A stretch of DNA of 64,000 nt, taken from assembly GCA_018716625.1 (NCBI GenBank), contig DVJQ01000042.1:61-64060 (forward strand), written 5' to 3'. The stretch is from Candidatus Galligastranaerophilus intestinavium. GTDB lineage: Bacteria; Cyanobacteriota; Vampirovibrionia; Gastranaerophilales; Gastranaerophilaceae. The notes beneath the pieces were generated by a model, which worked only from the letters and a program-made list of their open reading frames with translations, made no database searches and had not been told where the DNA came from. Positions 1-51,688 of this stretch are shown piece by piece. Position 1 is the stretch's first letter. Each line of letters begins with the position of its first letter. Made by a program: the position numbers and the translations under genes.

Positions 1-1565
1 GCTACTGCTCTTTCATTCGCCCATTCTCTGATAGCAAGTATTTGTTCTGATTGTGTTGTAGAGAGCGGTACAGTGTTCTTTATAACCTTGTACAAATCCT
101 CTTCTTTTAGAGTCCTGTTTTCAGAAAATGCTTCAAACAGGGCAGAAATTACAACCTGCTCAATTTCAGCACCTACAAACCCTTCTGTTATCTCTGCGAG
201 TTTGTTTAAAAGAGTATCAGTAACCGCAAAATCTTTAGAAATACTGCCTTTTAATCTTTTCTCAAGGTGCAGTTTAAAAATAACCTTACGTTCAGCTTTT
301 GTCGGTAAGTCAACAAAAAAGATTTCATCAAATCTGCCTTTTCTTAGCATTTCAGACGGCAGAGCATTAATGTTGTTAGCCGTTGCAATGACAAATACAG
401 GCTTAGTTTTTTCCGACATCCAAGTGAGGAATGTTCCGAAAACCCTTGTAGCAGTTCCACCGTCACGCTCTCCGCCATTACCGCCAAATCCTTTTTCAAT
501 CTCATCAATCCAGAGGATAGAAGGTGCTACGGCTTCCGCTGTCTGAATTGCCTTCCGCATATTTTCTTCACTGCTTCCTACAAGTCCGGAAAAGATTTTT
601 CCTACATCAAGCCTTAGCAAAGGTAACTGCCATAATGCACTCATAGCTTTTGCCGTCAAACTTTTACCGCACCCCGGAACACCTGTTATTAAAACACCTT
701 TAGGGGCAGGAAGATTGTAATCCTTTTGAGCCTTACCGAGCCATGAGTTATTACGCTTAATAAGCCACTTTTTAAGGTTCTCCAATCCGCCCACATCATT
801 CATATTGAAATCGGACTTGATAAATTCAAGTATTCCTGTCTTTTTAATTACTTGACACTTTTCATCAAGAATTACGTCCAGTTCCTTAATCGTTAATTGT
901 CCTTTAGAGACCATTGCTCTTGCAAAAGCGTTTTCTGCTTCCTGTAAAGTCAACCCCTGCGCTGCTTTACAAAGGACTTCTTTCTCATCTTCCTTTAAAT
1001 CAATTACAATGCCGGAACTTTCATTCATCTCAATCATTTCATTAAGCAGGGATTTTATTTCATCTAATGTAGGCAGGTCAAAATCTACTACGGTAATATC
1101 TTTTTGCAGTTCCAGAGGTAGAACAAGAGAAGGTGCAATAATTACAACATTTTTGGAAACATCTGCATTCTTTAAAGAGCCGGCAACATCACGAATTTTT
1201 CTTATTAGGTTATAATCTGCATTTCTGTTATTAAGTCCTAATAGTGGGTGAATGTCCTTTAGTATTAGTATTGCCGGATTATTGTAATTATCTATGAAAT
1301 TAAGAGCGTCAATCGGCTCATTTCCATTATTTACGCTTTCCTGTCCGTCTTTTAGGTTCTTTTTTAATCCTTCCGTTGAACTCCAGATAAACACATCTCG
1401 CTTAGTTTTAATAGTTTTGACATTATTAGCAATTTTAGTGATAAGGTCTACAATTCTGATTTCTTCCCACGTTGGAATATACACGAAAGAGAACCTTGCC
1501 TTAAATAGGTTAGTTAAGTGTTGTTCAGTTTTCTTTAATCCTTCTAATACTACTGTCTGTGCCAT
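1..1565 (-). CDS. AAA+ ATPase, CDC48/FtsH-like single AAA module behind a ~250-aa N-terminal domain; the 3' end runs off the window
   Basis: Absent from the ORF track because it has no stop inside the window. My minus-strand translation from ATG 1565 (SD GAGGT 8 nt upstream, 3 nt after the stop of the upstream gene) stays open to position 1: MAQTVVLEGLKK... Walker A GVPGCGKS is encoded at 660-683. Walker B is ILWIDEIEK, followed by GRFDEIFFVDLP. The tail reads ...PLSTTQSEQILAIREWANERAVA. The + strand ORFs 73-546, 1009-1215 and 1294-1707 are antisense shadows. Confidence 0.85.
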   Translation of the reverse strand, partial: MAQTVVLEGLKKTEQHLTNLFKARFSFVYIPTWEEIRIVDLITKIANNVKTIKTKRDVFIWSSTEGLKKNLKDGQESVNNGNEPIDALNFIDNYNNPAILILKDIHPLLGLNNRNADYNLIRKIRDVAGSLKNADVSKNVVIIAPSLVLPLELQKDITVVDFDLPTLDEIKSLLNEMIEMNESSGIVIDLKEDEKEVLCKAAQGLTLQEAENAFARAMVSKGQLTIKELDVILDEKCQVIKKTGILEFIKSDFNMNDVGGLENLKKWLIKRNNSWLGKAQKDYNLPAPKGVLITGVPGCGKSLTAKAMSALWQLPLLRLDVGKIFSGLVGSSEENMRKAIQTAEAVAPSILWIDEIEKGFGGNGGERDGGTATRVFGTFLTWMSEKTKPVFVIATANNINALPSEMLRKGRFDEIFFVDLPTKAERKVIFKLHLEKRLKGSISKDFAVTDTLLNKLAEITEGFVGAEIEQVVISALFEAFSENRTLKEEDLYKVIKNTVPLSTTQSEQILAIREWANERAV

Positions 1566-1568
1566 TCC

Positions 1569-2147
1569 TTACCTCATTGCCTTTAAAACTTCCTTAAAAT
1601 TTCCCATTCCGTTAAGAGAAATATTGTTGTTCTTATCAATCCTTACTTCAATCTTGTTTCTGTACTTAGTGATAATGCTTTCATCGTACCTGTCAGAGAA
1701 GAAATAATAATTCTGATTACTTGAACCTACCCATGGACGGCTAAAATCCTGTTTATCTTCTTCATACCTGCCGTCAATGAGGACATCAATATATTTTGTG
1801 AGTTCTTTAAACATTTCCATGCCGGTTAATTCACTATACTTGTAGCCTGTAAAAACAACAACAGACAGCCCGATTTCTTGAACTGCCTTAGAAATTGCTG
1901 TAACTGCTTCTATTTGTTCCAGAGGTTCACCACCGAGAAAGGTTATACCCTCTATTTTATCCTTGTAGAATTTGATTAAGTCAATTAATTCTTCTACATC
2001 GTAGATAGTACCACCATCTTTATCCCACATTGCATGATTAGCACACCCCTTGCAATGCAAAGAACACCCTTGAACCCAGATGCAAAACCTTGTATTTGGT
2101 CCCTCGGCGGTAGTTATTGGTATGTATGAATTAATCCTAATATCCAC
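1569..2147 (-). CDS. NrdG-family radical SAM (4Fe-4S) activase-like protein
   Basis: CSLHCKGC (CxxxCxxC, encoded at 2043-2066), GITFLGGEPL, VDVLIDGRY...WVGSSNQ. It aligns motif-for-motif with the host NrdG at 51197-51688. The ORF track starts it at 2234, which would overlap the upstream gene by 98 nt. An in-frame GTG at 2147 overlaps that gene's stop and is the more likely start. Confidence 0.8.
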   Translation of the reverse strand: MDIRINSYIPITTAEGPNTRFCIWVQGCSLHCKGCANHAMWDKDGGTIYDVEELIDLIKFYKDKIEGITFLGGEPLEQIEAVTAISKAVQEIGLSVVVFTGYKYSELTGMEMFKELTKYIDVLIDGRYEEDKQDFSRPWVGSSNQNYYFFSDRYDESIITKYRNKIEVRIDKNNNISLNGMGNFKEVLKAMR

Positions 2148-2349
2148 CCTGTTGATACCCCTCGTTGTATGTATCGTTGTATACTTCCTGCTGATGATAC
2201 TCCTCGGTAAATTCAGAGTAAACAGTCTTTGCACCTGTTAATTGTTCAACTTCCTTTATGTAGTTCAAGCAGGATTTCCCCTTGATACCTACAGTTTCTG
2301 ACTCAATTCTTCCGTCCGGATATACTCGGATTTTAATTTGCTTGGTCAT
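2137..2349 (-). CDS. small DUF2997-like protein
   Basis: The 70-aa protein MTKQIKIRVYPDGRIESETVGIKGKSCLNYIKEVEQLTG... matches my recollection of the DUF2997 pattern (I.I..DG.V...V.G..G..C....). SD GAGGGG lies 9 nt upstream. The gene overlaps the upstream gene by 17 nt. Confidence 0.6.
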   Translation of the reverse strand: MTKQIKIRVYPDGRIESETVGIKGKSCLNYIKEVEQLTGAKTVYSEFTEEYHQQEVYNDTYNEGYQQGGY

Positions 2350-2908
2350 TATTTAACCCCTCTTTTAATTCTTGTAAAGTATCAATATCAAGTGTCTTAA
2401 TCTTGCTATCATCCCAATCGCCATCAAGAAATTTTGTGACATCAACTTCTGATATATCAAAGTAATGAATAGGTAATTGTTCATAATACTGATTTTCAGC
2501 AGGGTGACTTTCAACCTTTAGGATATTTTCAAGTAAAATCTCACCTTGACAGTTAATTACGTCATATACATCCACCCATCCGTTAAAAGCTTTCTTATTT
2601 TCAACAGAATGCAAGCACAAAAATATATCCGTATCCTGAACAAGTTTCATATTATGGTAAGATTTTGACGGAGAAATCACATTGCCATGGATGTTTAAGA
2701 GTTTGAAGTTTCGTTCATACATATCATATTGAAGTTCAAATGCCAGAAAAACATCGTTGCCGTAGTATCTGAAATAGCAATCTTTTATATCCTCATTATT
2801 AGGAAATTGAGCAACAAGTTTGTTATTGCTATCTTTTACGCACCAAGAATCATTAATCAATTCAATAGTATATTTATCAGGTTCTAAAATCTGTTCAGCC
2901 ATATTCAA
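2333..2908 (-). CDS. hypothetical protein (about 190 aa, no motif recognised)
   Basis: Long ORF in operon register. SD AAGGAG precedes TTG 2908 / ATG 2902. It lies 9 nt downstream of the CBS gene's stop. Confidence 0.6.
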   Translation of the reverse strand: MNMAEQILEPDKYTIELINDSWCVKDSNNKLVAQFPNNEDIKDCYFRYYGNDVFLAFELQYDMYERNFKLLNIHGNVISPSKSYHNMKLVQDTDIFLCLHSVENKKAFNGWVDVYDVINCQGEILLENILKVESHPAENQYYEQLPIHYFDISEVDVTKFLDGDWDDSKIKTLDIDTLQELKEGLNNDQAN

Positions 2909-2917
2909 ATTTTCTCC

Positions 2918-3649
2918 TTATTTATCTAAATCCCAATGAGTAATGATACCAAGCAGTTTTTCACTACTGTGACCGTTTTCAGTTACAAACAGAGCTTCAA
3001 GCCGTTTTTTATCAACAAGCGATTTTTTAAACAAATCTTTTATATAATATTCATCACAAGTCTTGGCAACAAACTTATATTCAATTTCCTTATTCTTATC
3101 AAGACTGCAAAACTCTATTAAATCTGCAATTGTCGCTTTTTGTGGTTCTTCTACAATACCGTCTTTATTCTTGTTAAAATACAGCATTAAGGAATGTGAA
3201 GAAAAAACTCCTATTAATTTCTCGGTATTATCTACAATCGGGGTACAGGTATAATTTTTCTCTAACATTGTTTCTATAACATTAGATATTATTTCTTCCT
3301 GCTTAACTTTATAAATACTGCTTTCTTTAACTGCAATGTTTAAAGCAGTTTTAGGGTGCATTATTCTATCTGCATCCCTAGAGAAATCATCATATAGCTT
3401 TTGCGTAAGAATTACATAATTTCCATTACGAACCTCAGGTTCATGCGTTAATAAGTTTCTCAGATTTCTGTAAAATTCCCAGAGATTACGGTTACGTTTC
3501 AGAACTTTATCATTCAAAATATCGAATTTTCCAAATGTCACTGCATTATTTCGATTTTTAATAAATGTTTCAAACTCGGTGTATTTATCAAGAAAATCTT
3601 GTGTTAATGTCATATCCGCCTTTCTTAATTTTGCCCCATTTTGTACCAT
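2918..3649 (-). CDS. HEPN-like (RNxxxH) N-terminal domain fused to a CBS-pair domain
   Basis: The helical N-terminal ~100 aa end in LWEFYRNLRNLLTHE, with R-N-L-L-T-H encoded at 3443-3460 (an Rx4-6H HEPN-type motif). The C-terminal half has two CBS-like units (...LIGVFSSHSLMLYF... and ...LLGIITHWDL). The start may instead be ATG 3613 (SD GAAAGG), which would put the left inverted repeat in the 5' UTR. Confidence 0.65.
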   Translation of the reverse strand: MVQNGAKLRKADMTLTQDFLDKYTEFETFIKNRNNAVTFGKFDILNDKVLKRNRNLWEFYRNLRNLLTHEPEVRNGNYVILTQKLYDDFSRDADRIMHPKTALNIAVKESSIYKVKQEEIISNVIETMLEKNYTCTPIVDNTEKLIGVFSSHSLMLYFNKNKDGIVEEPQKATIADLIEFCSLDKNKEIEYKFVAKTCDEYYIKDLFKKSLVDKKRLEALFVTENGHSSEKLLGIITHWDLDK

Positions 3650-3652
3650 ATT
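3631..3652. repeat. left arm of an exact 22-bp inverted repeat (TGCCCCATTTTGTACCATATTG)
   Basis: Its reverse complement is identical to 3802-3823. Extended to 3657, it reads TGCCCCA-N13-TGGGGCA, a recombinase-core-like palindrome. Confidence 0.9.
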
Positions 3653-3749
3653 GGGGCAAACTCTGAAAATGACTGATATAAAAGAGTCCTAGCATATAAA
3701 GAACAGAGAAATATTATTAAATTGCAACAAAATGAGGGCTGTTTACGGT

Positions 3750-3778
3750 TTGACAAAAGCCTGTGTTTTGCGTATATT
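3750..3778 (+). promoter_or_regulatory. near-consensus sigma70-type promoter TTGACA-17 nt-TATATT inside the putative invertible segment, currently reading away from the operon
   Basis: TTGACA is at 3750-3755 and TATATT at 3773-3778, with an exact 17-nt spacer. In this orientation it leads into a 12-codon mini-ORF (3806-3844) and then antisense into the recombinase gene. Confidence 0.55.
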
Positions 3779-3801
3779 TGCTATCATAGGGCAAATTGTA
3801 T

Positions 3802-3823
3802 CAATATGGTACAAAATGGGGCA
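3802..3823. repeat. right arm of the exact 22-bp inverted repeat
   Basis: CAATATGGTACAAAATGGGGCA is the reverse complement of 3631-3652. It duplicates the first 5 codons of ORF 2918-3649 in inverted orientation. Confidence 0.9.
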
Positions 3824-3857: not shown

Positions 3858-4403
3858 TTAAAGTTCAAAATTTTTGTAACTGAAATCTATTTCGTCCTGT
3901 TCAACCCCAATATACATGAGAGTTATTCTCTGGCTTGAATGATTAAATATTTTCTGCAATACAATAGGGTCTTTAAATTTCTGATAGTGATGATAACCGA
4001 AAGATTTTCGCATTGTATGAGTTGAAACGTGGGCGGTTATTCCGTTTTCTTTACAGGCTCTGACAATAAACCTATAGACCTGTGACCTGTCTAATCGCTT
4101 ACCTTGCTTGCCGAGAAATAAAGGTTCTTCAAGGTTTTTACCCTTTGTAAAATCTTTCAAAACTCGTTTTAATTTGTCGTTAATGTAAAAACTTTTCAAT
4201 TTCTGGGTCTTTTTCTCAACGATTGTAATATGGGTTTTATTAACAACATCCGAAACATTTAACCCTACAATATCCGAAACTCGTAAACCGGAGTTCATTC
4301 CAAGTACCCATATTACATAATCTCTTTTGTTATGTAATTTCAAGTATTGTTCAATCTTCTCAATATCTTTTCTGTTCTTTATCGGTTCAGCTTTCTTATT
4401 CAT
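3858..4403 (-). CDS. small tyrosine recombinase (catalytic domain only, FimB/FimE-sized), candidate invertase
   Basis: At 181 aa it has GLRVSDIVGL (Arg), HTMRKSFGYH (HxxR) and a C-terminal ITLMYIG (Tyr). SD GGAAGGAA is present. It sits directly beside the inverted-repeat pair. Confidence 0.85.
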   Translation of the reverse strand: MNKKAEPIKNRKDIEKIEQYLKLHNKRDYVIWVLGMNSGLRVSDIVGLNVSDVVNKTHITIVEKKTQKLKSFYINDKLKRVLKDFTKGKNLEEPLFLGKQGKRLDRSQVYRFIVRACKENGITAHVSTHTMRKSFGYHHYQKFKDPIVLQKIFNHSSQRITLMYIGVEQDEIDFSYKNFEL

Positions 4404-5589: not shown

Positions 5590-6672
5590 TTATATAGGAA
5601 CTGCAACGGTTTCAGCGATACCAAGTTTCTGATAGAGTTCAATATACAGAGGGTTTACATCAGAAGAGTGTACTTTTTTAAGCAGGTTAGAAAATGAATC
5701 GCCAAAGCCATTATTTTTAAATATCTTAATTAATGAAGGTGGTAATGGGGCTTCATTTATCAGGTCTGCAAACATTTGTTCATAGTTATTCAGCCTGACA
5801 TCACCTCTTATAACTGGTTCTTGATAAAATATTACTTCTTGCAAGGTATTTATGTAATATTTTTCAAGTGTTTCGTACAATTTTCTCTCTTTAAGTAAAT
5901 CTAACAAGGTTTTCAGCTTCAATCCGTCTTTACCCTTCTTGCCTGTAATAAAGTTAGAAATATTCTGCAATTTCGGTTTATAACGATACTGTAATTCACA
6001 GCGCAAAATATTAACCTTTTCAAGGTAAAGTGTCTTTGTTTCAGTATTGTAAGCCTCAGAAGGTATAAGAGCCTGTTCTTCTTCACTCAATCCAAGCCTT
6101 AATACAACTTCTTTAATATTTGCCTTGTCTTGCAATTCTTGTGCCTTATCGTAAAATAGGTACTGCCTATCTCCTACTTTATCTTTTTCCGTAAAATGTT
6201 TTGCAAGAGTAGTTACATATAAAGTTTTGTTTGTGTCGCTTGAGTGGTACAGTAATGACTTAAATCTCTTCTTATACATTCTATTTGCAAGGAAGTTTAT
6301 ATAATCTATAGGTGAGTTTTCCATAAAATTATTCTTTGTTAAGTGAAGAACAGATACCCTGTACTTATCAATTACATTATCTGGTAAACTATATAAACCC
6401 AAATTTTCAAAAAGTTCGTACAATTCATCTTCTGTAGGCATTTCTAAATTTGTATCGGTATATTTTTCATCATTCTTTAGATATCTGGTAGGAGTAAAGC
6501 ATAGGCTTAGCTTCTGCCTGCTTGTTTTTATAGTGTAAGCATTCTGTGGAAAATTTTTTCCCATACATTTATTCATTTGATTTAATTGAAAATCAACATC
6601 AGCACCTAAATCCTTCAACTCCGGAATAGGCGCATAAAATCCGAGTTTATCAATTAATAAGTTACCATGCAT
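5590..6672 (-). CDS. hypothetical protein (360 aa); a faint resemblance to rolling-circle/phage replication initiators is unverified
   Basis: Long ORF that overlaps the upstream gene by 11 nt. Only weak cues suggest a function (LIDKLGFY near the N-terminus, LRCELQYRYK). Confidence 0.55.
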   Translation of the reverse strand: MHGNLLIDKLGFYAPIPELKDLGADVDFQLNQMNKCMGKNFPQNAYTIKTSRQKLSLCFTPTRYLKNDEKYTDTNLEMPTEDELYELFENLGLYSLPDNVIDKYRVSVLHLTKNNFMENSPIDYINFLANRMYKKRFKSLLYHSSDTNKTLYVTTLAKHFTEKDKVGDRQYLFYDKAQELQDKANIKEVVLRLGLSEEEQALIPSEAYNTETKTLYLEKVNILRCELQYRYKPKLQNISNFITGKKGKDGLKLKTLLDLLKERKLYETLEKYYINTLQEVIFYQEPVIRGDVRLNNYEQMFADLINEAPLPPSLIKIFKNNGFGDSFSNLLKKVHSSDVNPLYIELYQKLGIAETVAVPI

Positions 6673-8083
6673 AATATTTCTCCAATGTTTTAATGAATCT
6701 ATCTATAATTTTTCCGTATTTAATATCTTCTTTAATAAGGGTATCAAAGGCTTTTAGCACTTTTCTTAGCTCTGTTCGCTGCTTCGAACATTTCTTCTCA
6801 TCTAGGTATTTGTCAATAATAATCTTACGTTCTTCACTTGATTTTCTTGCAAGGAGAAAGACCAAAGCTGTTTTTAATGGTACTGAACGTTGTTCAGGTG
6901 TGTAACTTTGTATAAATTTGTCAAAGACTGTGTAGTAGGATTTGTTAATTAACTCTATATTTTTACAGTGGTTTATAATTGAGCGGAAGAAAAAGCTAAG
7001 GATATGTCCTACACCTATTGCACCACTGTTAAACATAGTCCAAATATATATTTTCTTTGAGGGGGCAGCATTTGTGCTTAATAGCCTGCTTATTGTTCTC
7101 ATGCCGGTTATCTTTGCTGTAAATAAGATACTGCAAGGATTATAACCTCTTGTAATTCTAAAGGTTGACTGTGATTTATTATCAAGGGCTTTGTCGTATT
7201 CTTGACTGGTTTTCAAATACCCTTCTTTTATAAATCCGTCATTAAGAAGGAAACTGTTTTTAACCCTAATAGTAATAGCTTCTTTCTCATCATTAACACC
7301 TATATCTAATTCCATTTTATTTACAGGTGTTAGCTGTTTTACCTCTTCAATTAACTCTCCTGCATTACAGTCCAACTGAAACTCTGCATACATTTCTACT
7401 CCGGTTGTTATATTTAAGGAAATAAACCTATGGAATAACTCGTAAAACACCTCAATATCAATATCTTGCGTTACCTTCTTTAAGTTATCTTCTTCATCAA
7501 TAGAGTATTCTTCTAATACTGCAAATTGTTCTGTAATAAAAGAACCGGAAGATACAATATTGTAGAGTATCACAAGCATTGTTAACTGGTAGAAAGTGCA
7601 GTAATACTCTAATATATCATCAGGAGTATGCTCTCTTCCTTGTTCTTTCTGCCAATTAAAGAGTTCTCTTCCATTGAAGTTACAAACGAGATTTTTGTAA
7701 CTGTAAGAGTTTGATAGAGGAACTTCCTTTCTTCCTTTGTTTGAACCGATATATCTTAACTCTACAAGTCTATTTATATCTTCTCTTACTGTGAAGTTGA
7801 TGAAATCTTCCAAGATAAAATCATCAAATCCTAAGTACCTTTTATAATAGTCTGTTACAATACTTACTGTTTCATCATTTAGTGCAATATTATTCTGCCA
7901 TATATTCAATAAGAAAAAGTCTAATCTGTTATTTATATCTTCATCTGAAATATTCTTAGATAATAGATACGGTCTTATTACCTGCTTAATGTTGAAAGAA
8001 GATAATACACATGAGATATTGTTGTATGAAGACTCTATCTCATGAATTGTAGGTAGTATCTGTAGGATGTTGTTGTTTACCAT
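6662..8083 (-). CDS. hypothetical protein (about 474 aa, no motif recognised)
   Basis: Long ORF. I prefer ATG 8083 (SD AAGGAGAAAATC) over the track start at 8113. Confidence 0.6.
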   Translation of the reverse strand: MVNNNILQILPTIHEIESSYNNISCVLSSFNIKQVIRPYLLSKNISDEDINNRLDFFLLNIWQNNIALNDETVSIVTDYYKRYLGFDDFILEDFINFTVREDINRLVELRYIGSNKGRKEVPLSNSYSYKNLVCNFNGRELFNWQKEQGREHTPDDILEYYCTFYQLTMLVILYNIVSSGSFITEQFAVLEEYSIDEEDNLKKVTQDIDIEVFYELFHRFISLNITTGVEMYAEFQLDCNAGELIEEVKQLTPVNKMELDIGVNDEKEAITIRVKNSFLLNDGFIKEGYLKTSQEYDKALDNKSQSTFRITRGYNPCSILFTAKITGMRTISRLLSTNAAPSKKIYIWTMFNSGAIGVGHILSFFFRSIINHCKNIELINKSYYTVFDKFIQSYTPEQRSVPLKTALVFLLARKSSEERKIIIDKYLDEKKCSKQRTELRKVLKAFDTLIKEDIKYGKIIDRFIKTLEKYYAW

Positions 8084-8206
8084 GATTTTCTCCTTGTTGT
8101 TGAATGAGTACAATCTATAAAAAAATGTATGTAAGTGTGTGTGTAAAATATCTTATTTGTAGGAATTGGATAAGATACATAAACAGTTAATGCAAGTTCG
8201 TTCATT

Positions 8207-9178: not shown

Positions 9179-10705
9179 ATGTTAAATGCAGTCAGTTACG
9201 TAAGAGTATCGTCCGAAGACCAAAAAAAACACGGATATAGTATTGGACAGCAGATAACCAATTGCATGAACTATGCTTTACAAAACAACTATAAGCTGAT
9301 AAAAACATTTAAAGATGAGGGCATATCCGCTAAAGATTTAAACCGTCCTGCTTTACAAGATTTACTAGCGTATTGTATGGATGCAACTAATGAAGTTAAA
9401 GCCGTTATAGTATGGAAATTAGACAGGATTTCAAGGAGTGTAGCGGATTATACTGCAACACTATCCCCATTTTTTGCTCAAAATGATATCCAACTTCTAA
9501 CCGTAGCAGATATTAACGGTGAGGGGCTTGATGTTGAAATGATGAGGCAAATTTCCATGGTATTTGCTGAACGTGAGCGTAAAATGACAGCATTAAGAAC
9601 CAAAGAGGGTATAAGAGGTAAAGTTGCATTAGGACAATACCCTTATCATGCCCCTGTAGGCTATGAAAATATCGAGGTTAAAGGTTCTAAATATAAGAAA
9701 ATGGTAATAGATGAAGAAAACGCATTCTTTGTAAGGCAGGCATATAACCTCTGCTTACAGGGTGACTCCATTGTGACTATTACCAAAAAATTATATAATA
9801 TGGGATTTAGGAATAAACACGGAAACAAGCACCCAAAATCTTCTATTGAATATATATTACACAACATAGCATATACAGGAAAATTCTATTATGATGATAT
9901 TTTAGTCGCAAATACTGATTATGCACCTATAATAAGCGAAGCCACTTACTATGCAGTGCAAGAAAAACTAAATGCACCAGAGAAAACAAGACAAATGCAC
10001 ACTCAATTTCCATATAACGAGTGCATGACCTGCGCTAAGTGTGGTTGTGCAATGACAGGGGAAGTTAAAAAGAAGGTATCAAAGAAAACTAAGAAGGTTA
10101 TAAGAGAATATATCTACTATCATTGTACCGGAAATCGTGGCGGTGACTGCAAAAAGCATAGTTATATCAGGCAGGAACTTATTGAAGAAGCTTTTGTGAA
10201 TATTTTGCAACATATAACAATTCCTGAACACGTACAGGAACTTGTTATTAACGGTCTAAAAAAGGCTCATAAGGAACAGAACCACGATTATGAAATGCAG
10301 AAGAAATCTATTAGAAAGAGAATTGACAAGATAGATAAGGCTCTCAAAAATGTTTTTGAAAACGATTTTGATAAACATGACCAAGGAACATTAAAGAACA
10401 TTAAAAACTGGAAGGCTGAACGTAAAACATTACTCCTTGAAGAACAAGAACTATTAAAAGCAACAGAGACCTTTTTTGTACAATCGAACTGTTTATTGGA
10501 ATTCTGCAAAGACGCTCAGAATGCGTTTTTACAGGGAAATGCCGAACAAAAAAGAAGAATCGTAAAAATAGTATGTTCGAACTTTTCTTACGATGGCGAA
10601 AACCTAGTCATAGAGCCTAAACCAATATTTAAGGCTGTCATTAAAAACAGCCTTTCCAATAAAAAACTCCCCAGGTTGGACTCGAACCAACAACCTACCG
10701 GTTAA
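9179..10705 (+). CDS. large serine recombinase (resolvase domain + recombinase domain + zinc ribbon + coiled coil)
   Basis: The N-terminus YVRVSSEDQ...GYSIGQQ gives the catalytic Ser. It also has DRISRS, a CxxC...CxxxxxC zinc-ribbon region (CMTCAKCGC...YYHCTG...C) and a long C-terminal coiled coil. SD is AAGGAAGGG. The last 13 codons are read from the antisense of tRNA-Asn. Confidence 0.9.
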   Translation: MLNAVSYVRVSSEDQKKHGYSIGQQITNCMNYALQNNYKLIKTFKDEGISAKDLNRPALQDLLAYCMDATNEVKAVIVWKLDRISRSVADYTATLSPFFAQNDIQLLTVADINGEGLDVEMMRQISMVFAERERKMTALRTKEGIRGKVALGQYPYHAPVGYENIEVKGSKYKKMVIDEENAFFVRQAYNLCLQGDSIVTITKKLYNMGFRNKHGNKHPKSSIEYILHNIAYTGKFYYDDILVANTDYAPIISEATYYAVQEKLNAPEKTRQMHTQFPYNECMTCAKCGCAMTGEVKKKVSKKTKKVIREYIYYHCTGNRGGDCKKHSYIRQELIEEAFVNILQHITIPEHVQELVINGLKKAHKEQNHDYEMQKKSIRKRIDKIDKALKNVFENDFDKHDQGTLKNIKNWKAERKTLLLEEQELLKATETFFVQSNCLLEFCKDAQNAFLQGNAEQKRRIVKIVCSNFSYDGENLVIEPKPIFKAVIKNSLSNKKLPRLDSNQQPTG

Positions 10706-10738
10706 CAGCCGGTTGCTCCGCCATTGAGCTACTGAGGA
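10667..10738 (-). tRNA. tRNA-Asn (anticodon GTT), 72 nt, no encoded CCA
   Basis: Minus strand: TCCTCAG TA GCTC AATGGCG GAGC A ACCGG CTGTTAA CCGGT AGGTT GTTGG TTCGAGT CCAAC CTGGGGA G. It folds into a full cloverleaf with a T-loop TTCGAGT. Confidence 0.9.
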
Positions 10739-11893: not shown

Positions 11894-12202
11894 ATGTGTA
11901 AAAAAGACAGTTCAATATGCTTTGCATTGGGTATTTTAGCAGGTGTTGTAGGCGGAATAGCCGCAGGCGTGCTTTTAGCTCCTAAATCCGGTGAAGAATC
12001 AAGACGAGAATTAAAAATTGCCTATGATGACTTCATGCAAAAATATTCTCCGGAAATTACCCAAGCAAAAAAACAGGCAATGGAGATGATTAAATCATCC
12101 AAAGAAAAAATTGAAGACTCGTACAAAAAATTTAACGAAAATTTAAAAGCGCAAAAATTGGCACATGCCAAAAATTGCGAAATAGATGTATATGAAATAT
12201 AA
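11894..12202 (+). CDS. YtxH domain protein
   Basis: GVVGGIAAGVLLAPKSGEESRRELK is the YtxH signature. ATG 11894 follows SD AAGGAG; the track start at 11861 is a TTG. Confidence 0.7.
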   Translation: MCKKDSSICFALGILAGVVGGIAAGVLLAPKSGEESRRELKIAYDDFMQKYSPEITQAKKQAMEMIKSSKEKIEDSYKKFNENLKAQKLAHAKNCEIDVYEI

Positions 12203-12217
12203 AGAAAGGTTTTTCGG

Positions 12218-12574
12218 ATGGATCCGGTAAATATAACCCTGATTATACTTTTGTCCGTTACAACTGTTATTATAGTTGTACTGGGTGTACTTACTGCAAA
12301 ATTAATTGCTAATCTTACGATTTTGTCCAAAAATGTTGATTCAATTGCACAAAGTATACAAAGTGAAATTCAACCAACCCTAAAAGAGCTCAGAGAAGCC
12401 GCTCAATCTATAAATTCTATCGCGAATAACGCAGACACCCAATTCAGCGGCTTTCAAAGTACCCTAAAAAACGTTCTGGGGGCTTCAAGTCTTGTCGGTT
12501 GCAAAATGAGAGGCCTAATGGACGGACTTGTAAAGGGTATAAGTTTTGGTATAAATTTATTTAACAAAAAGTAA
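12218..12574 (+). CDS. DUF948-like membrane-anchored coiled-coil protein
   Basis: An N-terminal TM helix is followed by ...NVDSIAQSIQSEIQPTLKELREAAQSINSIANNADT. Confidence 0.55.
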   Translation: MDPVNITLIILLSVTTVIIVVLGVLTAKLIANLTILSKNVDSIAQSIQSEIQPTLKELREAAQSINSIANNADTQFSGFQSTLKNVLGASSLVGCKMRGLMDGLVKGISFGINLFNKK

Positions 12575-12590
12575 AGAAAGGAATAATACT

Positions 12591-12854
12591 ATGTCAACAG
12601 GTAAATTTGTAGCAGGTTTTATTGTTGGAGGTGTTGTTGGCGCTGTAATAGGCGTACTTCTTGCACCCCAATCCGGCGAAGAAACTCGCGAAATGATCAG
12701 CAAAAGCACGAAAGAAGCATATGGCAAAGTTTCTGACGCTGCTAAAGAAATTCAACAAAAGGCAGAATCTGTTGTTGATGAAGTACAGAAAAAAGGCGAA
12801 GAAATAATAGGCAAAATTCAAGATATGATTAATAAACAAAAAAATGAAGCTTAA
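12591..12854 (+). CDS. YtxH domain protein
   Basis: GVLLAPQSGEETREMISK. Confidence 0.7.
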   Translation: MSTGKFVAGFIVGGVVGAVIGVLLAPQSGEETREMISKSTKEAYGKVSDAAKEIQQKAESVVDEVQKKGEEIIGKIQDMINKQKNEA

Positions 12855-12884
12855 TTATTTTTTATTTTGTGTTAAAATTTCCCT

Positions 12885-14189
12885 ATGAAGTACGATGTTG
12901 CAATTATAGGGTTAGGCCCATCAGGGCTTGAGTTTGCCAAATGTGCGCTAAAACTCGGATTAAAAGTTATAGCATTTGAAAAATCTTCCGCAGGCGGAAC
13001 ATGTTTAAATTTGGGTTGCATCCCAACAAAGACTATGTTAAGCTGTGCGGAAGTTTTTTCTAAAGCAAAAAATTGTGATAAATACGGTATTGAGCTTGAT
13101 TCAAGCTCGCTTGGCTTTTCATACCAACAAATGTGCAAGAAACGCTCTGAAACCGTAAACAAACTAAAGAATGCTCTGCTAAAAGATTTAACATCAAAGG
13201 GATTAGAAATTGTAAATGAATCCGCGTCAGTTAAATGTGTGAACAATAGCGCAACTGTCATTGCAAATAACATTGAATATTTCTCTGATAAAATCATTAT
13301 TGCAACAGGTTCAAAACCAAACTGTATAAGTAATTTTAGCTTTAATCACAGAGATTTTATAAGTTCGGATGACCTTTTAAAGTGCGAAGAGTTGCCAAAA
13401 AGTATATTAATCATCGGCTCGGGCGCAATAGGCGTGGAGTGGGCAACAATACTAAACGAGTTTGGTGTTAATGTTTTTGTCATCGAGATGGCAGAGCGCT
13501 TGGCACCTTCGTGCGATATTGATATTTCATCACGCATAGAACGTATTTTTAAAATGAAAAAAATTAAATTCTATAAGAATGCGACACTCCTTGAATTTAA
13601 CAGCAACATTGCAAAGCTTTCAAATGGTGAAAATATTATATGTGACAAGGTTTTGTGTGCAGCAGGCAGAAGACCTGTTTTGACACAGATTGACGGAGTT
13701 GACTTAAAAATCAATGCAGATTGTACTACTAATGTTAATAATTTATATGTGACAGGTGATGCTGCAGGGGGTAAAATGCTTGCTCATGCTGCTTCCTCTC
13801 AGGCAAGGGCGCTTTTTAACAATCTCTATAAAGGTATGGAATACATTGTTTCGGATATTCCCTCTGTAATATATACAACACCTGAAATTGCCTCTATTGG
13901 CATAAGAGAGCAGGACATTGATAACCCGCATGAATATAAAATCGTAAAATTACCGATATCTTATCTTGCAAAGTCTTGGTGTGACGGAGAAATTGACGGT
14001 TTTATAAAATTGATAATTAAAGACAAACACATAAAAGGTGCTCACATTGTATCAAAAGAGGCGTCTGCATTAATTATGCAAATAGCAATTGCTATGAAGG
14101 CAGATATGGACACAGACGAACTTTGCGATGTCGTATTTGCCCACCCAACATACTCTGAAGGGATTATGGAGGCTTTAAACAATGCATAG
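12885..14189 (+). CDS. lpd: dihydrolipoyl dehydrogenase-type FAD/NAD(P) disulfide oxidoreductase
   Basis: GLGPSG (FAD binding), the redox-active GGTCLNLGCIPTK, GSGAIGVE (NAD binding), and a C-terminal HAHPTYSE dimerisation motif. Adjacent to lipA. Confidence 0.8.
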   Translation: MKYDVAIIGLGPSGLEFAKCALKLGLKVIAFEKSSAGGTCLNLGCIPTKTMLSCAEVFSKAKNCDKYGIELDSSSLGFSYQQMCKKRSETVNKLKNALLKDLTSKGLEIVNESASVKCVNNSATVIANNIEYFSDKIIIATGSKPNCISNFSFNHRDFISSDDLLKCEELPKSILIIGSGAIGVEWATILNEFGVNVFVIEMAERLAPSCDIDISSRIERIFKMKKIKFYKNATLLEFNSNIAKLSNGENIICDKVLCAAGRRPVLTQIDGVDLKINADCTTNVNNLYVTGDAAGGKMLAHAASSQARALFNNLYKGMEYIVSDIPSVIYTTPEIASIGIREQDIDNPHEYKIVKLPISYLAKSWCDGEIDGFIKLIIKDKHIKGAHIVSKEASALIMQIAIAMKADMDTDELCDVVFAHPTYSEGIMEALNNA

Positions 14190-45531: not shown

Positions 45532-46269
45532 CTAAATAACCTCAAAACCATATTTTACAAATTTATTTCTTATTCCCTGCACAAGTTCTTTCTTTGGTTC
45601 ATCAACGTCTAATTTGTATTCAAGGCCGAGCTTTTGCCATTTCTCGATGCCCATTTTGTGATAAGGTAAAAGCTCGACTTTTTCAATAATCGCCCTATAT
45701 TTATCCAAAAATTCTATTAACTTGTCTATATATTTTTCATCCGTTGTAAAACTTGGTACAAGAACCTGTCTTATGCGAGTTTTTTTATTAATCGAATAAA
45801 GATAATCAAGAAAATCTAAAACTTTTTTATTATCTTTGCCCGTAAGTTTTAAATGCATTTGCGAATCAAGATGCTTTATATCAAGCATTACAAGATCACA
45901 AAGTGTAATTGCGTTCTTGATATCGTCGCTTAAATCAACATAGCCGCACGTATCAAGACAGGTGTGTATCTTTATCTCTTTTAGTTTTTTAAATAAACTA
46001 AGTACAAAACCGGCCTGCAAAAGTGGCTCACCGCCTGAGAGCGTCACTCCTCCGCCTGAAAAATTGAAAAAATCTTTATATTTTAAAATGTCGTTGTAAA
46101 CACTATCAACAGTCTTTGCGCCAAGAGAATTTTTAAACCAAGTATCGGGGTTGTGACAGTACAGGCATCTAAAAGGGCACATTTGCATAAAAATTACATA
46201 TCTTACCCCCGGCCCGTCGAGCGTTCCGCCCGTTAAAACAGAATGTATATAACCCAGTTTATCTGTCAT
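45532..46269 (-). CDS. pflA: pyruvate formate-lyase activating enzyme
   Basis: DGPGVRYVIFMQMCPFRCLYCHNPDT and SGGGVTLSGGEPLLQ. Confidence 0.9.
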   Translation of the reverse strand: MTDKLGYIHSVLTGGTLDGPGVRYVIFMQMCPFRCLYCHNPDTWFKNSLGAKTVDSVYNDILKYKDFFNFSGGGVTLSGGEPLLQAGFVLSLFKKLKEIKIHTCLDTCGYVDLSDDIKNAITLCDLVMLDIKHLDSQMHLKLTGKDNKKVLDFLDYLYSINKKTRIRQVLVPSFTTDEKYIDKLIEFLDKYRAIIEKVELLPYHKMGIEKWQKLGLEYKLDVDEPKKELVQGIRNKFVKYGFEVI

Positions 46270-46330: not shown

Positions 46331-48583
46331 TTAGAAACGATTATGGAATGTTCTTGAAATAACATCCTCTTGTTGTGCTCTTGTCAATTTAATGAAATTG
46401 ACCGCATAACCTGAAACTCTTATTGTGAGCTGCGGATAGTTTTCAGGATGATCCATAGCGTCAATAAGCGTTTCTCTGTCTAAAACGTTAACGTTAATAT
46501 GCTGACCCATATTTGTCATATAGCCGTCAAGCATACCTTTTAAGTTATTAATCTTTTCATCCTCAGTTTTTCCAAGTGAGTTTGGAATAATGGAGAATGT
46601 GTTTGAAATTCCGTCTTTTGCGTGTTTGAAGGGCAATTTTGCAACAGAGCAAAGTGAAGCAAGCGCACCGCACTCATCTCTGCCATGCAGCGGGTTTGCA
46701 CCCGGGGCAAAAGGAACATTTGCCTTTCTGCCATCAGGCGTATTACCTGTCTTTTTACCGTAAACAACGTTTGATGTAATGGTTAAAATTGATTGTGTAG
46801 GAATTGCGTTTCTGTATGTAGGCAATTGTTCAATTTTGCTCATAAACTTCTCAACGAGTTTTGTTGCAATTTCATCAACCCTATCATCATTGTTACCGAA
46901 TTTCGGGAAATCGCCTTCAATTTCAAAATCAACTGCAATACCTTGTTCGTTTCTGATTGGTTTTACTTTTGCATACTTAATAGCGCTTAGCGAGTCAACA
47001 GTTACAGAAAATCCTGCGATACCGCAGCCCAATTTTCTTACAACATTTTGTTCCATTAATGCAAGTTGAGCTTTTTCATAGTAGTATTTGTCGTGCATAT
47101 AATGAATTATATTAAGCGCGTTAACATAAGTTGTTGCAAGCCATTCCATCATAGCGTCAAATTTTTTGATTACTTCATTGTAATCAAGATATTCTGATGT
47201 TATTGGCTCAAATCCGTTTGCAACTTTTACAAACGACTTTTCATCCACACCACCGTTAATTGCATATAAAAGTGCCTTTGCAAGGTTAGCGCGCGCACCA
47301 AAGAATTGCATTTCTTTGCCGATAATCATAGGCGAAACACAACATGCAATACCATAGTCATCTCCAAACATAGGACGCATCAAATCGTCATTTTCATATT
47401 GGATTGATGAAGTGTTGATGGAAAGCTTTGAGCAGAATTTTTTGAAATTATCAGGTAAATTTACTGACCACAAAACTGTCATGTTAGGTTCAGGTGCAGG
47501 TCCAAGGTTAGTAAGTGTGTGTAACATACGATAGCTGTTTTTTGTAACAAGTGTTCTACCGTCATCACCCATACCGCCAATTGACTCTGTAACCCAAACA
47601 GGGTCGCCGCTAAAGAGTTCATTATACTCCGGAGTTCTCAGGAAACGAACCATTCTTAATTTGATGATAAAATCATCCATTATCTCTTGGGCTTCCTGCT
47701 CGGTCAATGTGCCGTTTTTAATATCTCTTTCACTGTATATGTCAAGGAAAGTAGAAACTCTGCCAAGGGACATTGCAGCGCCGTTTTGGTCTTTAATTGC
47801 TGCCAAATATCCAAAATATGTCCACTGAACAGCTTCGCGGAAATTTTTAGCAGGTTGAGAAATGTCATAACCATAAGTTTGTGCCATTGTTTTCATTGCC
47901 TCAAGTGCTAAAATCTGTTCCGAGAGTTCTTCTCTTTCACGAATAATATCTGAGGTCATATTGAGTTTATCAGATGAAGATTTTTCGGCTTGTTTTTCTT
48001 CAATAAGTCTGTCAATACCATAAAGAGCAACACGTCTGTAGTCGCCTATAATTCTTCCTCTGCCGTATGCATCTGGCAAGCCTGTAATAATACCACTTTT
48101 TCTGCAAGCACGAATTTCGGGAGTATATGCCTGAAAAACGCCTTCGTTGTGAGTTTTTCTGTATTTTGTGAAAATTTCTTTTACTTTTTCATCTTCTTTC
48201 AGTCCATACGCCTTACAGGAAGCTTCAACCATTCTATGACCACCCCAAGGCATAATAGCTCTTTTCAAAGGTGCATCTGTTTGCAGACCTACAATAAGCT
48301 CATTATCCTTGTCAATGTAGCCTGCAGCGTATGCGTCAATTTGAGATGGAGTTGATACATCAGCATCCAAAAGGCCATTGTTTTCATGTTCTTTTTTCAT
48401 TAACTCTTTTACTTGTGACCATATATTTAGAGTCCTTTGTGTAGGTTCTGCTAAAAAGCTGTCATCTCCAAGATAAGGCGTGTAGTTATTCTGAATAAAA
48501 TCAACCACATCAATTGATTCAGTCCAAGATCCGCCGTTAAAACCCTGCCAACAAGGCATTGTTTTTTCTAATGTACATTCCAT
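46331..48583 (-). CDS. pflB: formate C-acetyltransferase (pyruvate formate-lyase)
   Basis: Active-site GIACCVSP, glycyl-radical motif [11 protein letters not shown] near the C-terminus, 750 aa. Confidence 0.95.
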
Positions 48584-51195: not shown

Positions 51196-51196
51196 G

Positions 51197-51688
51197 ATGA
51201 ATTATCATGATATAACAACGGACGATATGCTAAACGGCGACGGCCTTAGGGTAGTCTTGTGGGTTTCAGGTTGCACACACCACTGTGAAGGATGCCAGAA
51301 CCCGATAACTTGGGATATTACAGGCGGTTTGCCGTTTGATAAAAATGCGGAAGACGAACTATTTGAAAAGCTTAACAAAAATCACATAAGCGGCATTACA
51401 TTTAGCGGCGGCGACCCTTTGCACCCTATGAACAGGGATGAAGTTCTAAGGCTTATAAAAAAAGTTCATAATGACTGTCCAAATAAGACCATTTGGCTTT
51501 ATACGGGATTTTTGTGGGAAGATGTAAACAGTCTTGATGAAATAAAGTATGTAGATGTTCTCGCTGATGGAAGATTTGAAAAGGAAAATCTTGATAACAA
51601 TCTTCACTGGGTTGGTAGCCCAAATCAGCGTGTTATCAATGTAAAAGAAAGCCTAAAGACAGGCAAGGTCATTCTACATAAAAGCTAA
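51197..51688 (+). CDS. nrdG: anaerobic ribonucleotide reductase activating protein
   Basis: GDGLRVVLWVSGCTHHCEGCQNP, GITFSGGDPL, VDVLADGRF...WVGSPNQ. Confidence 0.9.
   Translation: MNYHDITTDDMLNGDGLRVVLWVSGCTHHCEGCQNPITWDITGGLPFDKNAEDELFEKLNKNHISGITFSGGDPLHPMNRDEVLRLIKKVHNDCPNKTIWLYTGFLWEDVNSLDEIKYVDVLADGRFEKENLDNNLHWVGSPNQRVINVKESLKTGKVILHKS

Follow-up and report, generated by a model that had tools for sequence, protein, structure and literature searches.

The Ycf46/Ycf35 (DUF1257)/DUF2997 cluster of cyanobacteria and plastids (for example, Synpcc7942_0416-0418 and the slr0374 operon of Synechocystis) encodes an AAA+ ATPase of the same family as the one analyzed here. Expression of the cyanobacterial ycf46 operon rises under stress and in the stringent response (bioRxiv 10.1101/2025.07.21.665879). 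Both clusters contain a DUF2997 partner, and the place of the DUF1257 protein is taken in ours by a putative DUF1257-type protein. The first-pass annotation of our locus had pointed to a link with an AAA/DUF2997/DUF1257 module, and this was correct; the AAA+ protein is of the Ycf46 type and has an adjacent DUF2997 gene. A radical-SAM enzyme, an HhH protein, TPR proteins, and a nuclease are all missing from the cyanobacterial cluster. The latter is a stress operon on the chromosome, whereas the operon described here is phase variable and carried on a mobile element. The single cyanobacterial AAA+ protein that we read ends in ...PLQLDIRQ, in contrast to the RGGRxΦDΦ terminus found here. A literature search returned no account of DUF2997, DUF1257, or Ycf46 in combination with a radical-SAM enzyme.

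Two defense systems also invite comparison. Like the present operon, Avs/AVAST systems combine an ATPase with TPR arrays and an Mrr-type nuclease and have fast-evolving TPR parts, and one of our loci encodes a TPR-Mrr fusion that ends in the tail described below. Unlike Avs/AVAST, however, the ATPase here is a classic Cdc48-type AAA+ protein rather than a STAND NTPase, and the putative sensor, effector, and motor are encoded separately and linked by a shared C-terminal tail instead of being fused. With IetAS the locus shares a partial match of its AAA+ protein to IetA but lacks an IetS protease. The operon differs from both systems in its obligatory radical-SAM enzyme and pair of mini-proteins.

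Operon layout and invertible promoter

Positions 1 to 3649 of the window (the whole 64,000-nucleotide stretch of DNA that was analyzed) hold the promoter-proximal half of a phase-variable operon on the minus strand. Gene A (2918-3649) encodes a protein with an RNxxxH helical N-domain followed by a CBS pair. It is followed by gene B (2333-2902 from an ATG start or 2333-2908 from a TTG start; 189 aa, no family), gene C (2137-2349; a 70-aa DUF2997 mini-protein), gene D (1569-2147, GTG start; a 192-aa activase-type radical-SAM enzyme), and gene E (<1-1565), a Ycf46-family AAA+ ATPase with a Cdc48 D2-type domain, 521 of whose 565 residues fall within the window. Reading of the sequence gave an A/B gap of 9 nt with the TTG start of B or 15 nt with the ATG start, a B/C overlap of 17 nt, a C/D overlap of 11 nt in which the GTG start of D lies over the end of C, and a D/E gap of 3 nt. 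The earlier domain calls (CBS in A, DUF2997 in C, NrdG-like radical SAM in D, and Cdc48-type AAA+ in E) held in profile searches. Since the annotated ATG of A falls within an inverted repeat, translation probably begins at M13 (3613) instead.

The locus had been presented as a five-gene unit. Five tightly packed minus-strand open reading frames (ORFs) do lie where they were placed, but the boundary was wrong, as the window edge cuts the operon. On the source contig (L004) the operon continues beyond window position 1, and at least five closely spaced genes, all outside the window, follow the AAA+ gene, giving a total of approximately 11 genes and 7.5 kb. The full AAA+ gene spans L004 positions 12085-13782, and its C-terminal tail, ...ARGGRTIDF, is encoded outside the window. 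A terminator-like hairpin lies 3' of the Mrr nuclease gene.

A 192-bp segment (3632-3823; no strand) is bounded by perfect inverted repeats of 22 nt (3632-3653 and 3802-3823) and encloses a plus-strand promoter, TTGACA-17-TATATT, at 3750-3778 (11/12 match). In the window this promoter faces away from the operon, which corresponds to the OFF state. Comparison of L012 with L004 shows the segment in opposite orientations (alignment scores, 140 versus -17). The window has the OFF form and a sister genome the ON form; both orientations are found in nature. The gene for a small tyrosine recombinase (3858-4403, minus strand; 181 aa), the presumed invertase of the segment, is kept immediately upstream of the operon in mobile loci. 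The proposal of a phase-variable promoter was therefore borne out by the repeats, the enclosed promoter, the adjoining recombinase, and the two orientations. Two recombinases and a Bro-N protein, also claimed as context, are present. The element that carries the operon is small and integrative and belongs to gut Gastranaerophilales (Melainabacteria). Well-known invertons control surface polysaccharide or restriction loci in Bacteroides. Our segment shares with gut bacterial invertons the promoter flanked by repeats, the adjacent small tyrosine recombinase, and the occurrence of both orientations; unlike those of Bacteroides, it controls an AAA+/radical-SAM operon, in Melainabacteria.

Conserved core and radical-SAM enzyme

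Protein E matched the AAA domain (E = 1e-30), with the CDC48 subfamily as its best match, and phrog_8638 over its full length (residues 10 to 520; E = 1.5e-143). It also carries a family-specific N-domain and is 39 to 42% identical to cyanobacterial plasmid homologues over at least 90% of its length. These alignments place E among the Ycf46-type AAA+ ATPases, N-terminal domain included. Protein C matched PF11211 (DUF2997) above the cutoff (E = 1.6e-15); DUF2997 was found in nearly all loci mapped, and C is the invariant partner of D and E. A fourth core protein had no match in a Pfam search. When aligned to DUF1257 by hhalign with bridging actinobacterial sequences, it scored 92.6% (E = 5e-7), versus 9.4% (E = 0.003) against four bona fide DUF1257 proteins without the bridging sequences. 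Its position and length are equivalent between L104 and L003. Together these data weakly suggest a relationship to DUF1257.

The distribution of the core was surveyed in a census seeded with the radical-SAM protein and hence biased toward loci that bear this enzyme. The invariant core consists of DUF2997, the glycyl-radical-activase-type radical-SAM enzyme, the Ycf46-family AAA+ ATPase, and the DUF1257-like protein; with a membrane HhH protein, these form a widespread five-gene module, of which the core of the mobile operon is a paralogue. This five-gene core, which lacks a nuclease, is chromosomal in 61 loci in these same bacteria. The same ORF flanks it in 32 of the 61 and, judging from its N-terminal sequence, appears to be aroA. 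The core also occurs on plasmids of Bacillus, Paenarthrobacter, and Rhodococcus, where RefSeq names its parts, and relatives were found in phages and in one streptococcal satellite. Chromosomal and mobile versions can lie on one contig (L019 and L070). Across the mobile loci, C, D, E, the DUF1257-like protein, TPR-HhH proteins, and Mrr recur.

Protein D contains the motifs GCSLHCKGC (CxxxCxxC) and FLGGEP (GGEP), read from its sequence, and matched Radical_SAM (E = 2e-10) and Fer4_12 (E = 2e-36). It also matched the pyruvate formate-lyase activase PFL-AE (E = 7e-10), and its EGPxxR loop aligns with the DGPGIR loop that touches the substrate peptide in PFL-AE. Thus, D has in common with the glycyl-radical activases NrdG and PFL-AE its small size, both motifs, and this loop. 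Unlike them, it has no adjoining glycyl-radical enzyme (no such gene was seen beside D in the loci read), carries a family-specific C-terminal extension of approximately 40 aa, and belongs to a family found also in the aerobes Rhodococcus and Paenarthrobacter. NrdG was the best NCBIfam and PHROG match of D, which would fit a plain activase of anaerobic ribonucleotide reductase in a metabolic cluster. However, D scored 121.2 bits against NrdG TIGR02491, below the curated cutoff of 126.1. In the loci read or mapped, its neighbors are module genes and no NrdD or NrdD-sized reductase adjoins it. Moreover, an nrdD and an nrdG gene lie elsewhere in the window (48937-51688), and the NrdG encoded there is just 36% identical to D, which sets D apart from the housekeeping enzyme. 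We therefore rejected this assignment, which we regard as scarcely credible; D is not the housekeeping NrdG.

Shared tail and variable genes

The ATPase and its partner proteins, including DNA-binding proteins and the nuclease, share one C-terminal peptide, (G)R-x-Φ-[D/E]-Φ-COOH. This tail was present in 168 of 832 in-cluster ORFs and in 0 of 2,497 others (p = 7e-108). Host tails (GRIVDF and RGGRALDV) and element tails (GRRIDI and RGGRTIDF) are nearly identical. In distant modules, the tails covary within the module (RRISH, RVIHF, and RVIRL in Paenibacillus; TRKVLV and NRKIKI in the Streptococcus satellite). The glycine before the arginine is frequent but lacking in about 10% of tails. The tails have G-R rather than G-aromatic, and no RVxG[FYW] glycyl-radical motif was seen on reading the module protein sequences. 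The nonuniversal glycine counts against the role proposed below for the radical-SAM enzyme, as does the occurrence of the module in aerobes, where a glycyl radical would not last.

C-terminal tails dock on several AAA+ machines: the HbYX and GQYL tails of proteasomal activators, the MIM tails of ESCRT-III recognized by Vps4/CdvC, and the RRKKAI tail of MuA recognized by ClpX. In each case, as here, a short motif at the extreme C terminus is common to several partners of one ring. The present tail differs in sequence and in being borne by the ATPase itself as well as by the partners.

The partners that bear the tail on the mobile element are TPR-HhH proteins, which change fast and contain HHH_3 domains and TPR repeats, and a membrane Mrr nuclease. 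Loci whose cores are 98 to 99% identical have TPR genes only 30 to 37% identical. Protein J, encoded outside the window, matched Mrr_cat (E = 4e-22), and the Mrr E...D...QxK core (FExEVA, GDGGVDI, and VQCKH) shows at least 90% conservation across 17 sequences. The catalytic residues are thus intact and the enzyme apparently active; this membrane-anchored Mrr-type nuclease is the candidate effector.

The first-pass annotation had instead proposed that the five window genes are self-contained, with a signal from D or E, possibly an adenosyl-type ligand, sensed by the CBS pair of A and a HEPN RNase activated in turn. Several of its observations on A were confirmed in addition to the tight gene packing. 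The RNxxxH motif is kept in all 18 homologues (R64, N65, and H69 are invariant at identities down to 26%). CBS was likewise found in 18 of 18 family members, with a Pfam match in A of E = 4.9e-10. Foldseek matched the CBS half to CBS pairs (E about 1e-8; TM-score on target, 0.7 to 0.8), and the C-terminal half, a genuine CBS pair (Bateman module), resembles nucleotide-binding CBS proteins. The N-domain was modeled with a pLDDT of 90 as three to four helices and, when compared with PDB structures, gave no match at an E value below 4, solved HEPN structures included. Weak matches to HEPN_Cthe2314, HEPN_RiboL-PSP, HepT-like, and DUF4145 (which we take to be a member of the HEPN clan) occurred in just 1 or 2 of the 18 members, leaving this domain an unconfirmed HEPN candidate.

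Against the self-contained scheme, A is present in 2 of the 17 mobile loci mapped and missing from the other 15 and from every chromosomal and plasmid copy, and its homologues elsewhere are stand-alone genes amid unrelated neighbors. The scheme also leaves out at least five further operon genes. Whereas C, D, and E always occur together, the five genes do not form a co-occurring set, and so the model, including its wiring from radical-SAM/ATPase signal through CBS to RNase, is largely refuted and highly improbable. For the same reasons of absence and independent occurrence, A is unrelated cargo in the variable slot, where it would use the promoter of the operon, and is neither core nor the effector of the module. 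Protein B, for which a domain search returned no family, belongs to a very rare family (4 clusters among 1.84 billion representatives). In each of the two contexts inspected (L012; L109/L110), its homologue immediately precedes the DUF2997 gene of this system, and B is an optional, system-specific accessory of this slot.

Proposed function of the operon

A search of PADLOC-DB v2 gave no specific component matches. Proteins A, B, C, F, G, H, and I had no match of any kind, and generic matches were returned for the AAA+ protein (IetA), the radical-SAM enzyme (pVip, viperin type), and the Mrr domain (PDC-S02/ZorD/LmuA). That core components draw only generic matches speaks against a conflict function. 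With no published description found of such a tail-coded AAA+/radical-SAM system, it is apparently undescribed; the earlier view that the mobile element carries a multigene system not yet described, with features fitting a conflict system, is upheld to that extent.

Our best reading, to which we give about even chances, is that the operon is a phase-variable, tail-coded, DNA-targeting conflict system serving defense or exclusion. The tail would act as a docking or recognition code that gathers the tagged proteins and the ATPase on one receptor within the module, either the AAA+ N-domain or the DUF1257-like/DUF2997 pair. Clients of the mobile version would be one to four rapidly swapped TPR-HhH proteins, serving as sensors and DNA binders, and the membrane-anchored Mrr-type nuclease, serving as effector; the DNA-targeting reading follows from these assignments. 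The AAA+ motor may hold, remodel, or release the nuclease once a TPR client is engaged. The radical-SAM enzyme, small and with an EGPxxR loop at the site of the PFL-AE loop, would most likely modify a protein of the complex, a role that is purely inferred. Inversion of the 192-bp promoter segment by the small tyrosine recombinase would turn the entire operon ON or OFF.

It is possible, though less probable, that the module is physiological, as has been proposed for cyanobacterial Ycf46, remodeling membrane-tethered DNA-binding proteins in nucleoid/membrane homeostasis or stress, with the mobile copy serving element maintenance, such as DNA anchoring or partitioning. The stable chromosomal location of the core, seen in its recurrent flanking ORF, and the stress- and stringent-response induction of the cyanobacterial relative raise the possibility that the core has a physiological and not an immune role, and the lack of a nuclease in the five-gene core and the invariable carriage of the operon by the element are also consistent with this notion. 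However, the mobile version has in addition an Mrr nuclease that is conserved and apparently active, several TPR paralogues with rapid turnover, and phase variation, all three typical of conflict systems, and the relatives in phages and a streptococcal satellite likewise sit poorly with a physiological role. The conflict reading also competes with one in which the element copy parasitizes or antagonizes the host module as an addiction or anti-host device, its clients docking on the host machine or its ATPase taking host clients. The presence of both versions in one genome and the near identity of host and element tails would fit such a device, but we consider it unlikely, as the element has a complete core of its own and does not need that of the host.

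Extent and gene content of the operon

The first-pass annotation described positions 1-3649 of the window as a unit of five co-directional minus-strand genes, and ORF listing and inspection of the sequence gave essentially the same genes and junctions. We refer to these genes as A to E. The CBS protein gene A (2918-3649, 243 aa) is followed by B (2333-2902; 189 aa from its ATG, with an alternative TTG start at 2908), C (2137-2349, 70 aa), D (1569-2147, 192 aa, GTG start) and E, which begins at 1565 and runs beyond position 1, where it is truncated by the window edge. B and C overlap by 17 nt, C and D overlap by 11 nt (the GTG of D lies over the end of C), and 3 nt lie between D and E. The annotation had taken these five genes for the whole operon; on the source contig they prove to be its first half only. 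This contig (L004), identified through an exact match to protein A, is a 77.5-kb metagenome scaffold on which window position x corresponds to position 13650 - x. There, E is complete at 565 aa, and further genes follow at spacings of only ~8 to 12 nt. The product of F (354 aa) has TPR repeats, two transmembrane helices and an HhH match too weak to pass the threshold, unlike its chromosomal homologues, in which an HHH_3 domain is clear. Next come G, which encodes a membrane protein of 141 aa, and H (240 aa), whose product also has TPR repeats and shares its C-terminal region with F. I (173 aa), an unnamed 73-aa membrane ORF and J (248 aa; transmembrane helices and an Mrr_cat domain, E = 4e-22) complete the series. 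A hairpin resembling a terminator lies 3' of J. Given the tight spacing and this hairpin, the operon extends over ~7.5 kb and comprises ~11 genes. In a sister element from another genome (L012, 10525-13297), two TonB_C-like proteins and an HNH endonuclease are encoded 3' of the Mrr gene, all lacking the C-terminal peptide described below.

Profile searches upheld the earlier domain labels for four of the five proteins (A, C, D and E) and returned no family match for B. C is a DUF2997 protein (E = 1.6e-15). E is a Cdc48-type AAA+ protein whose full length is covered by a match to phrog_8638 (E = 1.5e-143), a phage family without an assigned function; among solved structures its sequence recovered Cdc48 D2 domains only. 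I belongs to a conserved family whose members end ...EEVLEDNSIVLTINI, and is the fourth core protein together with C, D and E. It sits in the position of DUF1257. No Pfam match was found for I, and single-sequence hhalign against DUF1257 gave no support; comparison with the DUF1257 profile gave a weak 9.4% when strict and reached 92.6% only with bridging sequences. In J the predicted nuclease motifs are conserved, the Mrr E...D...QxK residues being kept in at least 90% of 17 sequences. At L014 (13634-15925), a single 763-aa protein combines a TPR array, Mrr_cat and the shared C-terminal peptide, which points to a functional link between the TPR and Mrr components. The TPR-HhH genes turn over fast: their products are only 30 to 37% identical between elements whose AAA+ proteins are 98 to 99% identical.

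D matched Fer4_12/Radical_SAM (E = 2e-36) and contains the CxxxCxxC and GGEP motifs. NrdG was its best NCBIfam match, although the score of 121.2 bits falls short of the 126.1 cut-off, and among solved structures its sequence recovered PFL-AE only. The EGPxxR loop of D aligns with the DGPGIR loop of PFL-AE, which touches the substrate peptide in the PFL-AE-peptide structure. The host encodes its own NrdD (48937-51195) and NrdG (51197-51688) as well as PFL-AE (45532-46269) and PFL (46331-48583) in the window, a set that fits an anaerobe; D is 36% identical to the host NrdG and 33% identical to the host PFL-AE, and is thus an extra paralogue. An assignment of D as a true RNR activase was rejected on its sub-cut-off score, the presence of the host NrdG and the lack of an NrdD-sized neighbour in the loci read. 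From its small, open activase architecture, D probably acts on a protein.

A C-terminal tail shared within the clusters

Four proteins of the operon end in related peptides of the form (G)R-x-Φ-[D/E]-Φ-COOH, hereafter the tail: E in ...ARGGRTIDF, F in ...KIGRKLEI, H in ...KLGRRVEV and J in ...GMGRRIDI. The strict pattern R-x-[ILV]-[DE]-[FILV]-COOH was counted across all loci collected at that stage, comparing same-strand ORFs in the clusters with other ORFs of at least 60 aa. It was present in 168 of 832 in-cluster ORFs and in none of 2497 others (Fisher p = 7e-108), so that within this set the tail is specific to the clusters. Seventy-four of the carriers are AAA+ proteins, without exception in the form RGGR[TA][IL][DE][FV]; the remainder are chromosomal membrane HhH proteins (HHH_3, E = 7e-17 to 2e-10), TPR-HhH proteins and Mrr proteins. 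Looser forms with a terminal W or A also occur, which makes the count by the strict pattern an underestimate.

Within each of the more remote modules the tails vary in concert. Those of the Paenibacillus module end in ...YRRISH, ...SRVIHF and ...KRVIRL, those of a Streptococcus satellite pair ...TRKVLV with ...NRKIKI, and those of Comamonas pair ...RRQVLG with ...RRRNILI. Such co-variation within a module is as expected of a peptide that binds a co-evolving receptor from the same module. The RGGR form is confined to modules with a radical-SAM enzyme, and a glycine before the tail arginine is common. A tie between this glycine and the enzyme was considered and set aside, since the Paenibacillus and Treponema modules possess the enzyme and lack the GG, and the glycine is missing in ~10% of the tails of client proteins, i.e., the tail-bearing partners of the AAA+ protein. 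These glycine-less tails, together with the occurrence of the module in aerobes, make a classical glycyl radical on the tail unlikely as a general rule.

Mobile and chromosomal versions of a conserved core

The distribution of the module was assessed from homologues of D and their contigs, a D-seeded scan of GTDB species genomes (79 loci) and a BLAST map of all loci. The conserved core occurs in two architectures. The mobile version, in which D is at least 63% identical to that of the window, was found chiefly in gut and rumen metagenome-assembled genomes of Gastranaerophilales/Melainabacteria. It begins with a small tyrosine recombinase gene and a variable slot of zero to several genes, continues with C, D and E, then with one to four TPR-HhH genes, one or two genes for I-like proteins and a gene for an Mrr membrane protein, and ends with DUF6876 and a resolvase. 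The chromosomal version (D 42 to 55% identical; 61 loci, e.g., in Gastranaerophilales, Clostridium peptidivorans, Bacillus marasmi and Acutalibacteraceae) consists of five genes, encoding one or two membrane HhH proteins, D, E, an I-like protein and C. The same flanking ORF, which we take to be aroA from its N-terminal sequence, is kept at 32 of these loci. Both versions were found on one contig (L019 and L070). The five-gene module also is carried by Bacillus cereus, Paenarthrobacter and Rhodococcus plasmids, where RefSeq gives its genes unconnected labels ('4Fe-4S single cluster domain', 'helix-hairpin-helix domain', 'AAA family ATPase', 'hypothetical' and 'DUF2997'). Paenibacillus polymyxa pPPM1a encodes AAA, DUF1257, DUF2997, the radical-SAM enzyme and two membrane proteins, a Geminocystis plasmid encodes AAA, DUF1257 and DUF2997 only, and in phages and a streptococcal satellite the AAA+ protein occurs with or without DUF1257 and DUF2997. 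In another element variant (L109, 693-4732), an Eco57I-type methylase and a T5orf172 protein precede the operon in place of the small recombinase, a gene content that suggests surroundings akin to a defence island.

A and B are not part of the core. The earlier label of A as a HEPN/CBS protein stood as regards its CBS pair and RNxxxH motif: A matched CBS in profile searches (E = 4.9e-10), recovered only CBS proteins by sequence among solved structures and had a CBS pair as the C-terminal half of its AlphaFold2 model (pLDDT 86; Foldseek E ~1e-8), and among its 25 detectable homologues R64, N65 and H69 were invariant in all 18 aligned. The HEPN fold itself obtained no structural match. Matches to the full-length model were swamped by the CBS pair, and a separate model of the N-domain (three to four helices, pLDDT 90) matched no solved structure. 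Only one or two members of the family match, and weakly, Pfam families that are HEPN-named or, by clan, HEPN-related; a HEPN identity remains plausible. The proposal that A is the output of the AAA+/radical-SAM module was not borne out, as A is present in only 2 of 17 mobile loci (L004 and L012) and its homologues stand alone elsewhere. The neighbours are a WYL protein, a PIF1 helicase and a methylase in L091, a ParE/Phd toxin-antitoxin pair in L092 and SecA in L094; in L111 the homologue follows genes for a PLD-helicase and an SMC-type ATPase. A 70-aa gene 3' of the last of these homologues was considered as DUF2997 and is not. A thus counts as independent cargo; it may be a small defence-type gene in its own right, and its family, with the invariant RNxxxH, may constitute a single-gene defence or toxin module. 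B is almost an orphan (4 clusters among 1.84 billion representatives). In the two contexts examined, homologues lie directly upstream of DUF2997: in L012 (93% identical) and in another element variant that lacks A (41% identical). B is an accessory, optional and specific to the system.

The suggestion that the operon has a phase-variable promoter was confirmed, the switching segment being seen in both orientations. Perfect 22-nt inverted repeats (3632-3653 and 3802-3823) bracket a segment of 148 bp. One arm spans the annotated start of A, so M13 is probably the true start. In L012, whose element is 94 to 99% identical, the segment is flipped (alignment score of 140 reversed versus -17 forward). 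A predicted σ70-type promoter within the segment (3750-3778, plus strand; 11/12 match) faces away from the operon in the window, the predicted OFF state, and into it in L012, the predicted ON state. In five further mobile loci, comparable repeat pairs lie 3' of the small recombinase gene. Elsewhere in the window, the 3' end of a large serine recombinase gene (9179-10705, plus strand) overlaps a tRNA-Asn gene (10667-10738, minus strand), and this overlap is the probable attachment site for the operon-bearing integrative element. Two overlapping genes without a Pfam match at 5590-8113 encode proteins of 473 to 483 aa (473 aa as called on L004, 483 aa from the TTG start in the window) and 360 aa; similar pairs (260 to 490 aa and ~355 aa) recur in related elements (L005, L009 and L011), and the pair may be the element's replication module. 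The element was also considered as a virus, and no close copy was found in IMG/VR.

Possible functions of the system

As a gene neighbourhood, the AAA/DUF1257/DUF2997 trio has been recognised before but not characterised. It ranges over plastids, cyanobacteria, Firmicutes, Actinobacteria, phages and satellites, and the literature searched describes no mechanism for it. A known defence system was rejected as an identity for the operon, PADLOC matches being generic only. We found no PADLOC model, no NCBIfam name and, in the literature searched, no description of the combination of radical-SAM, AAA+, DUF2997, DUF1257 and Mrr, in agreement with the initial view that the system is undescribed. As far as these tools tell, what is new is the radical-SAM and HhH extension of the trio, the putative tail code, and the mobile, phase-variable, Mrr-armed version.

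We infer that the tail may be a recognition code through which the ATPase and its clients meet on one shared receptor. The mobile operon could be a phase-variable, DNA-directed conflict system in which TPR-HhH proteins would sense or bind the target, the membrane Mrr nuclease would be the effector, and the AAA+ protein and radical-SAM enzyme would control assembly or release of the nuclease. We give this reading of the mobile operon about an even chance, and any specific role for the radical-SAM enzyme a far smaller one. The main rival holds that the core is a physiological remodelling machine, of which the element keeps a copy for its own maintenance; it draws support from the likeness of the core to the cyanobacterial ycf46 stress operon. 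A further scheme is, in our estimate, improbable. The tail would be the address label of an undescribed kind of AAA+ machine, and the radical-SAM enzyme would modify the label or a core protein (e.g., by hydrogen abstraction at the tail glycine or arginine), licensing the assembly or release of clients. In the mobile form, this modification would control a membrane-bound Mrr nuclease under the guidance of exchangeable TPR sensors, so that a housekeeping module common to cyanobacteria and plastids would have given rise to an immune system that is radical-SAM-gated and tail-coded.

The shared tail offers a testable organising principle for which proteins belong to the AAA+ machine, and the radical-SAM partner suggests a glycyl-radical-activase-like enzyme acting outside metabolism. 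Should the mobile version prove to be a defence system, a peptide code would hold together a motor, sensors and a nuclease that are made as separate proteins and not as fusions, and the system would be inverton-switched and common in human-gut Melainabacteria. To our knowledge, these bacteria are not yet open to genetic study; the Bacillus cereus and Rhodococcus plasmid copies provide tractable hosts for the module.

Related AAA+ proteins also occur with other partners. On a Treponema succinifaciens plasmid (L103, 4366-8590), genes for a radical-SAM enzyme and an AAA+ protein (tail ...GVRKLEM) are followed by one whose 683-aa product carries the annotation phage baseplate assembly protein V, a very different client set. 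Streptococcus satellite phage Javan368 (L001) and a Comamonas plasmid (L108) carry a different four-gene set, in which the partners of the AAA+ protein are proteins of ~575, 155 to 184 and 161 aa; this set may be another tail-coded system, borne by a phage satellite.
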